DNA of 64,000 nucleotides from a virus (taxonomy: Duplodnaviria; Heunggongvirae; Uroviricota; Caudoviricetes), in the IMG/VR virus record IMGVR_UViG_3300032167_000002, positions 338,312 through 402,311 of that record; one strand, written 5' to 3'. The stretch's first letter is position 1, and the number at the start of each line of letters is the position of its first letter. Of this stretch, positions 1,763 to 4,323 are shown in pieces. The notes beneath the pieces were generated by a model. It was not told the origin of the DNA and did not search any database. It saw nothing but the letters and a program-made list of their open reading frames with translations. A program made the position numbers and the translations under genes.

Positions 1763-2273
1763 TTACTCTTCGCACTCGAAGGCTGATTCTTCGTCAATTC
1801 TAATACGAACATCGTCAATACTCACCATTTCATAATCATAGGTAGTGCAGAACATTGGTTTAATACGACACACGCCCAAATCTGCCTTACACCATAAAAT
1901 TACGCCCTTATATCTACCTCGTCTATTTTTGTAAATTGACATCTTAATTGTAGGTCTTTCAAAAATATTAGAGGATAATATATTTTCTAAGGCTACCAAA
2001 TCATCATCTTTTACAGAAAGAAGAATGGAGCCATAGTCAATCTTATCTGCGATAGCTTTCGCACCACGCAGTAAGTTCTGGTCTGGAGTTTTACTATCCT
2101 GGTAATCACCGTTCAACTGAGTGGCTGACATGATAAACACACCATGTTGGTTGCAGATATCTTTCAATCGAGTAGATAACATAAACAAGATATTATCTTC
2201 TCTCAGTTTGACACCACCAGAACGCTTAGTGATTTCTTCCAAAATTTTCAAACTCGTATGAATATAATCGTGG
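1763..2273 (-). CDS. dnaB: Replicative DnaB-family helicase, exon 2 (C-terminal part).
   Basis: HDYIHTS...FIMSATQLNGD...DQNLLRGAKAIADKID matches DnaB motifs H3/H4 (IDYLQLM, SQLNR). The ORF-track start is a TTG, so this is not an independent start. The splice-junction coordinate is approximate. Confidence 0.7.
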
Positions 2274-3364
2274 CAACGGACTCTTATATTTCTATAAGCG
2301 CTGACTATCTTTTACTGCGGTCGCCCCGGTTCAGCGAACGGCTGACCGGGTCCCGCAGGACACCGTTTCGGCATTTAATGGACTTCGTTTCCTAAAATCC
2401 AAGTGCGTATCAATAGCACCCCTACTCCCCCGCCCAGAAGGCCTGGGGGATAGTCGATACAGGTTCTTTAGACATCTTTCCAAGTTCGTTTTTTGATTAT
2501 GTCAGCAATAGTGCCTTTTGAAATGCCATACTTCTCTGCTAACTTATCATAAGAAAGATTTGTTTCTTCTCTATCCTTTCTAATAAGTTTTACAGTTTCA
2601 GCATTGAGTTTTGTATGACGTCCATTTTCAAATACTTCTGGCATAATAAGAGCATATCTTCGTCCAGACCAAATATTTAGAAAAGAATTATAATGCATTA
2701 TATCTTCATACTTTTCTTTATATATTTTAGTAGGACTTTCTTTTCTTTGATATGCCTTTCTTAATTCAATAACTTCTTCTTCTGTCAATTTCGCTTGAGC
2801 CCAAATTTCTTTCTTTCTATGCTCTATTGTTTTGGGTTTAGCACAATTTTTACCGCCGGGTTCAATATTATAACCATTTGGTATTTGACAATTATATTGT
2901 TGAATATATTGAATTTCTAATTGATTTAATAAATCAATATTTTCAACATCTTGTGCTAATACTTCATAAGTAAAATTTTCAAATCCGTGTTTGCGGAATG
3001 CTCGATGAAGTGGAGATTCATATTCACAATCATCTGGATTTTTATAACTGCTTTTATGATTATTATATCGAGCATTACCTTTGCTAATGGATTGTCCGAT
3101 ATATTTTTTACCATTTACATTATTTGTAAAACAATAAATAATTCCCATAGAACCACTCCTTTCATTATAGTATGAAAGAAGTCAAAGCTCAATTGACTAG
3201 TTCCGTCCAAAGTTTCCCACGGGATTCCCATGCATTACTGTTTAGGGTTCCCCGTTAGCACTTGCGGTTGCTCGGTTCGCCGGTCTTTGACCGGGCCCGC
3301 CGCAGGTACCCCGCTGATTAGCGGAAAAGTGTTTCATTGTCCCAACACCCTTTTAATAGGGTTG
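2274..3364 (-). other. Group I-like self-splicing intron interrupting dnaB, carrying a GIY-YIG homing endonuclease ORF in a peripheral loop.
   Basis: GC-rich structured segments (2290-2460 and 3190-3330) flank the endonuclease ORF in an otherwise AT-rich genome. The two DnaB exons lie in frame on either side. Exon 1 ends in U and the intron ends in G at the proposed junctions. Confidence 0.6.
2468..3148 (-). mobile_element. GIY-YIG homing endonuclease encoded within the intron.
   Basis: GIIYCFTNNVNGKKYIGQS...R...H matches the GIY-YIG motif. Confidence 0.8.
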
Positions 3365-4323
3365 AACACATATTTTACATCGTGCTCACGAATATTTTTC
3401 TTTATCTTATCTTCTACATCTTTCAATGAGAAATCTGGTAATTCTTCAACATAAATAGGACTTTCTTTCAAGAGTTTAGCAGCCTGCATAACACGCTCTT
3501 CCTCACCCTCACCATACTCACCATTTAGAATATGTTCCTCATTTACATTTGATAAAAATGCCAACATCATAGTTTGGATTTCTTCAAGCTCCTGCTCGGT
3601 CGTGATAAATAAGACTGGCTCTGCAGGACCGCTGCCAATCCAACCAAATGTTTCATCATATATCTTATTGCAGCCGATGTAGCAGCAATCCGCAATCATT
3701 GAACGGGTCTTACCGATACCAGTAGCCGCAGACCGCAAGTAAAATTTCTTCAGTCTTGCGCCTCGAGTAACTGTATTGATTAGCGGACCATATAGAGGTA
3801 CACCGACTTCTGGATGCTGTTTGAATTTCTCAATCAAATCAAAAATACCTTCACCGGCTTGTTGAGCTTCACCAAAAGCATCATCAACATATTGCAATCT
3901 AATATTATCAATCTTCGCATCGACAATATCAGCAATCTGTTCCAGTGAAGAATTATCTAATTGATCCTCTTGAAGTTGTTTCTTCTTTACATCCAAAATA
4001 TTATCTGGGTCATAAATGTCAGTAACATCAATGCCGCAGTTATCAAATGCTCTCAATAGAGAGAATTTTTTCAAACGACCGTAATAATAATCGAAGGCTG
4101 ATGGAATACTACTCTCAGATACCTTGAGTAGCCATTCTTCGCCCTTCCCTTGCTTATATACAGCCGCGCTCTTGGGTCGAGATGCGAAGAAATCAGAAAT
4201 GCTTTCTAATGTAATTTTATTCGCACCTAACTCATGGATTTTATAAATTGCACCGAAAATCGTTTTGTGAAACGGATCGGCGAAATCTTCATCAACGATT
4301 GAATACCTATCAGTAATTTCCAA
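3365..4323 (-). CDS. dnaB: Replicative DnaB-family helicase, exon 1 (N-terminal domain plus Walker A).
   Basis: LYGPLINTVTRGARLKKFYLRSAATGIGKTRSMIADCC contains the Walker A motif (GIGKT). Confidence 0.8.

Follow-up and report, generated by a model that had tools for sequence, protein, structure and literature searches.

The DNA analysed here is a stretch of 64,000 nucleotides (nt), referred to as the window, which covers positions 338,312 to 402,311 of the Caudoviricetes virus record IMGVR_UViG_3300032167_000002. It encodes a DnaB/YorI-type replicative helicase whose gene consists of exon 1 (4395..3365) and exon 2 (2273..1763), separated by an insert of 1,091 nt (3364..2274), and this insert carries the gene of a GIY-YIG homing endonuclease. 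Coordinates are those of the 64-kb window, and the genes in the region of the helicase lie on the minus strand. We estimate a probability of about 0.9 that the insert is a mobile, phage IA2-like group I intron, as its sequence suggests. This reading is favoured because the exon junction is exact, the insert is bounded by U and G, P1 has a U·G wobble at the splice site, the core is supported by covariation, and the endonuclease gene lies in the P6 loop. The same features support the original prediction, made from the window sequence alone, of a group I intron with a GIY-YIG endonuclease that splits the helicase gene.

The helicase gene, its insert and the endonuclease

Exon 1 (3365..4395, minus strand) begins with ATG 4395..4393, contains an in-frame TAG at 4359..4357 and the Walker A motif GIGKT, and ends in ...GTG TT. 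Exon 2 (1763..2273, minus strand) starts with C CAC GAT TAT, which corresponds to F|H D Y with the Walker B aspartate, and ends with the stop codon TAA 1765..1763. The open reading frame (ORF) 3334..4323 (minus strand) matched the Pfam DnaB N-terminal domain and positions 9-134 of the 255 positions of the DnaB_C profile, and the region 2275..1763 (minus strand) searched alone gave no Pfam match. When 4323..3365 was joined to 2273..1763, the product matched DnaB_C from position 9 to 244 of 255 (Pfam, E=5e-16). Only after such splicing does the helicase possess contiguous Walker A and Walker B motifs together with the N-terminal and RecA-like domains. Across the junction, KYVF|HDYIHTS aligns with Walker B of Thermus DnaB 2Q6T ('kyvfHDYIhts' versus 'gliiIDYLQL'). 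The proposed check of aligning the spliced protein to DnaB thus gave a match that crosses the junction, both with 2Q6T and with DnaB_C. It agrees with the proposals that 1763..2273 continues the protein as its C-terminal half and that the junction restores Walker B.

The N-terminal half had been placed at 3365..4323. This region does contain the DnaB N-terminal domain and Walker A, but the gene does not start at 4323: homologues are 23-24 residues longer at their N terminus than the product from this position. The true start is ATG 4395..4393, with the N terminus MASKYVDTTAIM*VIGCVF... Codon 13 is the in-frame TAG, where all five homologues compared have Gln, and because of this codon standard-code ORF calling trims the helicase N terminus to TTG 4323.

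The helicase is 37-39% identical to SPbeta YorI and to Enterococcus/Bacillus phage helicases, the 30 best-matching of which are all uninterrupted. Among 5.8 billion proteins, thousands of relatives were found, and the identity figures refer to the best 120. Nearly all of these are uninterrupted proteins of 512-513 amino acids (aa), with 89-95% identity over 100% of the query; the uninterrupted homologues P0001 and P0003, P0010 and P0030 are 95% and 91% identical to the spliced helicase, respectively. Aligned with five homologues, the spliced product reads ...DVKY(V/I)(F/W)HDYIHTSLKILEEIT(K/R)R... and shows no gap at the junction. At the DNA level, most of 31 related IMG/VR helicase loci are without interruption, and the intron-less alleles (locus L121 and more than 15 others) have the contiguous DNA ...AAATATGTGTT|CCACGATTATATT at the exact insertion point. 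L121, whose protein is 94% identical, reads ...GATGTTAAATATGTGTT|CCACGATTATATTCATAC..., the same as the joined exons of the window around the junction, and its intron-less site GATGTTAAATATGTGTTCCACGATTATATTCATACAAG is a candidate substrate of the endonuclease. Presence of the intron is polymorphic among close relatives, and forms without an ORF are found at the same site in L025 and L117. In related contigs, the helicase gene was split by the gene callers.

The insert precedes the Walker B aspartate codon by 4 nt. Group I introns follow a U, the last base of the 5' exon, and have G as their own last base. Accordingly, the base preceding the insert (3365) is U and its last base (2274) is G, the omega-G, which is kept across the family alignment described below. 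Read-through cannot join the two helicase halves because 1091 mod 3 = 2, and the frame of exon 1 closes at TGA 3336..3334, 16 codons into the insert. The description of the halves as being in frame is therefore correct after removal of the 1,091 nt, but not by read-through. The two RNA arms have a G+C content of 49.5% and 53.1%, the endonuclease ORF 28.8% and the exons 37-38%, in agreement with the earlier description of about 1.09 kb with GC-rich structured RNA on both sides of an ORF.

The endonuclease gene (2468..3148, minus strand) is intact, as had been predicted, and encodes 226 aa with a GIY-YIG domain (PF01541) and a C-terminal HTH_3 domain (residues 189-222) according to Pfam. It is distant from the catalytic domain of I-TevI, the endonuclease of the T4 td intron (E=0.0016 to 1MK0), with GIIYcF, KYIGqS, R..H, E and NGYNI aligned, and it matches the PHROG homing endonuclease families 7168 and 314 (1e-30 and 4e-26). 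The ORF has no in-frame TAG, and an identical ORF was read on 21 contigs (38 blocks in the index) of up to 181 kb. Endonucleases of other introns at the DnaB site are 61-73% identical to that of the window, and those of family introns at other sites 26-40%; the higher identity at the same site fits a site-specific homing lineage. Upstream of the gene, putative expression signals (3156..3192, minus strand) comprise a sigma-70-like promoter at 3192..3164 (TTGAGC, 17-nt spacer, TATAAT; 10 of 12 consensus positions), a hairpin TTTCAT/ATGAAA at 3177..3160 and a Shine-Dalgarno sequence GGAG at 3159..3156. These are consensus matches only, and a function as internal promoter and expression signals is possible.

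The RNA fold and the intron family

Relatives of the intron were found with the 17-mer CCTGTATCGACTATCCC from the segment immediately downstream of the endonuclease stop codon. This 17-mer is present in at least 115 IMG/VR contigs, and all matches except L098, a chance match, have one common 3' architecture. Most members also have a conserved 5' block GCUAACGGGGAA..CCUAA..AAUCCCGUGGGAA, located 50-200 nt upstream in forms without an ORF and 800-1,000 nt upstream in forms with an ORF. The 5' layout of the family has the P3 5' strand straight after P1, with no P2, followed by two hairpins (Pa and Pb), J3/4 (GCUAA) and P4. The same DnaB site (...KY(V/I)F|(H/L)DY...) is occupied in L014, L020, L025, L040, L117, L118 and L148, whose helicases are 62-83% identical to that of the window, and the introns of L025 and L117 at this site are about 300 nt long. 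Occupation of the DnaB Walker B site is not rare in metagenomic data. The helicase had been called a less common host for a phage intron, which is only partly true, as the same site is taken in at least seven further metagenomic phage lineages. No other copy of the intron core was found in the window.

The exon flanks of further family members (L007-L119), inspected by eye, point to other sites: Toprim DADVDG| and KG|(L)GEM, both gyrase/topoisomerase-like, vFEG| (primase-like), a second helicase site ..RG|S, and a GIY-YIG gene (GIYKITN..YIGQA|). L117 and L063 each have two family copies per contig, and Lak megaphages gave short matches to the intron core. In L148 (~3116..4240), which is the same phage as L005/L146, the helicase Walker A is interrupted by an intein (..GVGK|AIPNNTL...VTHN|TRSMIAD) that is in frame and has LAGLIDADG-like motifs, so that this helicase gene bears both a Walker A intein and, at Walker B, a group I intron with a GIY-YIG endonuclease.

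From the sequence, a group I core with P1, P3-P9, P7.1 and P7.2 is predicted in the insert, and covariation across more than 60 relatives supports P1, P3, P4, P5, P7.1, P7.2 and P9. Intron position i corresponds to window position 3365-i, and all elements are on the minus strand. P1 (3338..3368) pairs the exon UGUU (3368..3365) with the guide GACA (3341..3338, intron 24-27), with the wobble U(-1)·G24 at the splice site and an inner hairpin CAACCCU/AGGGU (3364..3347). Among the introns at the same site, the P1 pair at position -3 covaries, being G-C in the window, L014 and L118, C-G in L117 (exon GUCUU, guide GAGA) and A-U in L040 (exon AUAUU, guide GAUA). The change in L117 is synonymous in the exon and compensated in the guide. 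The U·G wobble is retained in L014, L020, L025, L040, L117 and L118 (L148 was left out of this comparison), and in other family members the 5' exon also ends in U opposite G.

The 5' strand of P3 is ACACU (3328..3332, intron 33-37) and its 3' strand GGUGU (2360..2364, intron 1001-1005). P3 was evaluated in the family by comparing the pentamer before the Pa hairpin with the pentamer after a (G/A/C)AA(A/G)N motif, just 5' of P8. All five positions paired in 56 of 67 members, with 24 different pentamers, compared to 9.8% when partners were exchanged between sequences. Variants among the same-site introns are ACAC/GUGU, AUAC/GUAU and AAAC/GUUU. Between the P3 5' strand and J3/4 are the extra hairpins Pa (3326..3309), with the form UUCC-stem-loop-GGGG, and Pb (3306..3261), which is variable and, with 46 nt, unusually long in the window. 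Both show local complementarity in every relative despite differing sequences, and both appear in the minimum free energy (MFE) fold. The following segment (3219..3260) contains J3/4 UGCUA, P4 ACGGGG/UCCCGU, J4/5 AA, P5 CCC..GGG and J5/4 AA. One P4 pair changes from G-C to A-U in 7 of 27 sequences and one P5 pair is changed on both sides in 11, in an alignment that includes as noise the mis-specified reference L063:6236-6336.

The 5' strands of P6 and P6a (GGG and CUUUGGAC, 3205..3218) are predicted to pair with GUCUAAAG..CCU (2461..2473), so that the endonuclease ORF lies in the P6a loop with its stop codon inside the 3' strand of P6a. The P7 5' strand, or R element, is GACUAU (2450..2455), identical to P7 of td and of Twort I2. 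It is followed by P7.1 (2449..2427), which covaries, P7.2 (2420..2402, loop UAUUGAUAC), in which all five pairs are changed on both sides, and the optional P7.3 (2401..2379), in which this holds for all four pairs. The segment 2303..2358 comprises the long P8 hairpin (2358..2315), J8/7 UAAAAG (2314..2309) and the P7 3' strand, or S element, AUAGUC (2308..2303). The P8 stem is compensatory between relatives (CUGCGG/CCGCAG, CUGCC/GGCAG, CUGCGC/GCGCAG). The intron closes (2274..2298) with the P9 hairpin CUUAUA-GAAA-UAUAAG (2298..2283), all six pairs of which covary, and a 9-nt tail ending in the omega-G.

For P7, P7.1, P7.2, P7.3 and P9 taken together, 94.4% of the alignment cells are paired, versus 76.5% in column shuffles (0 of 500 reached the observed value) and 36-46% when the partners were slid by 1-3 columns. 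Changes on both sides were seen in 17 of the 26 pairs of these five helices, with 230 such cells versus 76 expected. P8, Pa and Pb vary in length and were not alignable by MAFFT/RNAalifold; their support is complementarity in each sequence and selected comparisons, with no column-wise count. The MFE fold of the ORF-deleted intron has z = -5.45 and recovers P1 (inner part), Pa, Pb, P4/P5, P6/P6a, P7, P7.1-7.3, P8 and P9.

Three other pairings were considered and dropped. A guide read as AACAC would replace the U·G by U-A, and the P3 3' strand is the partner with which AACAC covaries; a P3 formed by GGGGU after Pa and the CCCC of P7.1 conflicts with the local covariation of P7.1; and the variation in a UUUUCC/GGGAAA pairing is uncompensated. 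Across the family, the 9-nt loop of P7.2 is almost invariant and the P7.3 loop UUUUAGGAAACGAAG is conserved, while their stems covary, and these loops may make tertiary contacts. The MFE fold also pairs the guide bases GGAC (3342..3339, intron 23-26) with GUCC (2283..2280), 6-9 nt before the terminal G, which may represent an alternative or pre-splicing pairing.

Known introns and alternative explanations

Phage DNA-metabolism genes are long-established hosts of group I introns that encode GIY-YIG endonucleases (PMC3984707; PMC12350094). The td intron, compared through a T4-like genome (L153, PQ759884.1 24567-27610), is of this type, with a GIY-YIG ORF in its P6 loop. It shares with the window near-identical core strings (CUAAACGGGGAACC / AAUCCCGUG, CGACUAUCCC..GGGGAGUAGGG and CGAAACG; GAUAUAGUC in td versus GAUAGUC in the window) and the hairpins P7.1 and P7.2, although its host gene encodes thymidylate synthase and not a helicase. 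The Twort orf142 introns (IA2; AF132670, L120) resemble the window intron in core order, P7 GACUAU/AUAGUC, P7.1, AGUAGGG, P7.2, CGAAAUGG and a GGAAAC-looped P9. They differ from it in being ORF-less, in their canonical P2-P3-J3/4 layout and in their detection by the Rfam group I model RF00028, and they have no sequence-level match to the window. The order of elements in the window is colinear with td and Twort. P7.1 and P7.2 between P7 and the P3 3' strand are IA2 features (PMC4227781), and both are present in the window with covariation.

A member of the same family occurs in a cultured phage, Enterococcus phage EF5/EF1 (MF001361, L152 ~1690..2666), at another site, in the gene for the DNA polymerase III alpha subunit. 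It has the P1 U·G wobble, P3 directly after P1, Pa and Pb, the block GCUAACGGGGAA..AAUCCCGUGGGAA and the same 3' half. The GIY-YIG ORF in its P6 loop is 35% identical to that of the window and is labelled 'hypothetical protein', and the intron RNA is unannotated. The DnaB intein of L148 is likewise a selfish element with a homing endonuclease at a catalytic motif of the same helicase, but it is in frame, sits at Walker A and is removed at the protein level, whereas the window element, at Walker B, would be removed at the RNA level. The Agate gut phages (Borges et al., bioRxiv 10.1101/2021.08.26.457843) are also stop-codon-recoded, and one of their early genes contains the endonuclease of a group I intron. 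That endonuclease shows an enrichment of recoded TGA codons, in contrast to the window endonuclease with no in-frame TAG. We found no description of an insertion at DnaB Walker B in the literature.

Motifs taken from proven introns, and not from the window, were also searched in the 64 kb. CGACTATYCC-N(2-30)-GGRAGTAGGG (P7/P7.1 of td and Twort) had a single match at 2456..2420 (minus strand), and AACGGGGAACC-N(5-35)-AATCCCGTG (P4/P5/P4' of td alone) a single match at 3256..3218 (minus strand). The two matches flank the endonuclease ORF, with strand and order as expected, and 0 of 100 shuffled sequences matched.

Several results weigh against the reading as an IA2-like group I intron. Rfam 15, including RF00028, gave no match in the window at the gathering threshold and only noise at E<=10 on 2150..3450, and RF00028 did not match the ORF-less family members L025, L056, L060 and L074 either. 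No match in the window was obtained by nhmmer with Twort I1-I3 and td or by blastn with word size 7, and because these sequence-only searches found nothing, the likeness to td and Twort is one of short core motifs and architecture only. The td intron has a P2 hairpin before P3 and a P3 5' strand that abuts J3/4, whereas the window has no P2 and two hairpins after the P3 strand; td also has a long P9.1/P9.2 tail, whereas the window has only P9 and 9 nt. The canonical IA2 layout P1-P2-P3-J3/4-P4 and the extended P9 (P9.0-P9.2) are thus absent from the window. Moreover, P6 and P7 are invariant in the family sample, which was partly selected through the P7 17-mer, and covariation cannot test them. 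Since P6 never varies, it is placed by position and complementarity, and P7 is likewise proposed from complementarity and its identity to td and Twort.

The Rfam result can be judged by its controls. RF00028 found the three ORF-less Twort orf142 introns at 64-101 bits. The T4-type td intron, which carries I-TevI and is a textbook self-splicing intron, was missed even at E<=10. The negative result of RF00028 in the window is uninformative because the model misses both the td intron and the ORF-less family members, so that the covariance search once proposed as a check cannot decide the matter. The family intron of Enterococcus phage EF5 was not matched by RF00028, 20 related loci gave nothing with Rfam at the gathering threshold, and a megablast search of the region against cultured phages gave no match. 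The single RF00028 alignment does not capture group I subtype diversity (Nawrocki et al., PMC6125680), and the atypical 5' layout is most likely the reason why the model fails even on ORF-less members. The window element is filed here as a group I intron that would work like the td/Twort IA2 type, and not as a canonical IA2 member.

Could the locus instead be a fractured gene, in which a free-standing GIY-YIG gene separates two helicase halves that are each translated on their own and come together as two polypeptides, without any splicing of RNA? The exon 1 frame does close soon after entering the insert, a TTG-started ORF (1763..2251) is available for the second half, and phages are known to have fractured genes and free-standing endonucleases (PMC2677866). 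However, TTG 2251, the only in-frame start of the second half, has no Shine-Dalgarno sequence and lies downstream of the HDYIHTS codons, so that a separate C-terminal fragment would lose the essential Walker B motif. The exact U and G boundaries, the group I core, which covariation supports on either side of the ORF, and the ORF-less versions of the same RNA at the same site also argue against this explanation, which we regard as highly improbable. A different objection accepts the group I intron and supposes that it is decayed or non-autonomous, either not splicing at all, which would leave a helicase pseudogene in a defective genome, or requiring a protein cofactor. Splicing is indeed deduced and not observed, the architecture is atypical in lacking P2 and having Pa and Pb, and no curated covariance model recognises the element. 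On the other hand, all core helices and J3/4, J4/5, J5/4 and J8/7 are intact, P7 is the same as in td and Twort I2, the identical endonuclease ORF recurs on 21 contigs, and compensatory changes across more than 60 sequences keep the base pairs, which indicates selection on the RNA fold. Decay or dependence on a cofactor is considered unlikely, although a need for a cofactor is still conceivable.

An intein or a group II intron has a negligible probability, and the sequence itself refutes both. DnaB is a classic intein host, and the related phage L148 has a Walker A intein in the same helicase, but a length of 1,091 nt is not divisible by 3, and the insert contains in-frame stops. The only Pfam matches of the ORF in the insert are GIY-YIG and helix-turn-helix domains, with nothing intein- or reverse-transcriptase-like, and the RNA has group I core motifs.

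Under the favoured reading as a mobile group I intron, the pre-mRNA would fold so that the exon UGUU pairs with the guide GACA in P1, with the U·G wobble at the splice site, and the P3-P9 core would bind guanosine at P7 (GACUAU/AUAGUC). Two transesterifications would then free the intron, cut behind its terminal G, and ligate ...GUGUU to CCACGAU..., possibly with the help of a P10 pairing (CCA/UGG), and the joined message would restore a single helicase of 513 aa. Homing would take place in a mixed infection: cleavage of an intron-less helicase allele by the endonuclease, close to the insertion point, would be repaired with the intron-bearing copy as template, and the intron would thereby spread. 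Self-splicing, the activity and target specificity of the endonuclease, homing and a role of Pa and Pb are what we infer from these comparisons.

TAG codons in the window and significance of the intron

The neighbours of the helicase are YorF-like, Sak4-like/AAA_24, YorH-like and primase genes. Across the whole window, TAG is apparently read as sense. If only TAA and TGA are taken as stops, long ORFs with 5-12 in-frame TAGs are obtained where the standard code gives none, for example 9217..10236 (-), 20362..22455 (+), 23823..25748 (-), 25736..27217 (+) and 27630..30254 (-). In the last of these, the TAGs are flanked on either side by Peptidase_M15, phage lysozyme, amidase and SH3 domains. ORF 9217..10236 (-), with 12 in-frame TAGs, has a GIY-YIG domain at its C terminus (Pfam, E=4e-9) and is similar to the GIYKIT..YIGQA genes in which family introns are lodged on other contigs. 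The replication genes of the window are almost free of TAG, and no tRNA, hence no suppressor tRNA, was found within the window. Late-gene recoding has been described for gut phages (bioRxiv 10.1101/2021.08.26.457843), and the TAG pattern of the window fits it. In L117, dnaB exon 1 reads cat TAG att TAG tat gtc ttc just upstream of the intron, so that TAG seems to be sense there too.

For the annotation of this phage, the two helicase 'fragments' would become one replicative helicase of 513 aa, and the 'hypothetical' ORF between them an intron-encoded homing endonuclease. The window intron is an ordinary kind of phage element, and its residual novelty lies in the atypical 5' layout and the invisibility to Rfam. 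With it, the Walker B site of DnaB-type helicases is added to the catalytic motifs targeted by homing elements. It is conceivable, although we put this forward only tentatively, that the family is a large, undescribed structural subclass of phage IA2-like group I introns, with no P2 and two hairpins between P3 and J3/4, undetected by the curated model although common in large uncultured phages, and present in helicase, primase-like, gyrase-like, polymerase and other genes with GIY-YIG endonucleases of a site-specific lineage; the literature search found nothing relevant on such a 'P3.1/P3.2' layout. If this were true, group I introns would be systematically under-called in viromes, and the genes they split would be mis-annotated as fragments. 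Standard Rfam screening misses the family entirely as well as the T4-type td intron, so that the intron content of phage metagenomes is likely underestimated, and the family alignment could seed a dedicated covariance model.

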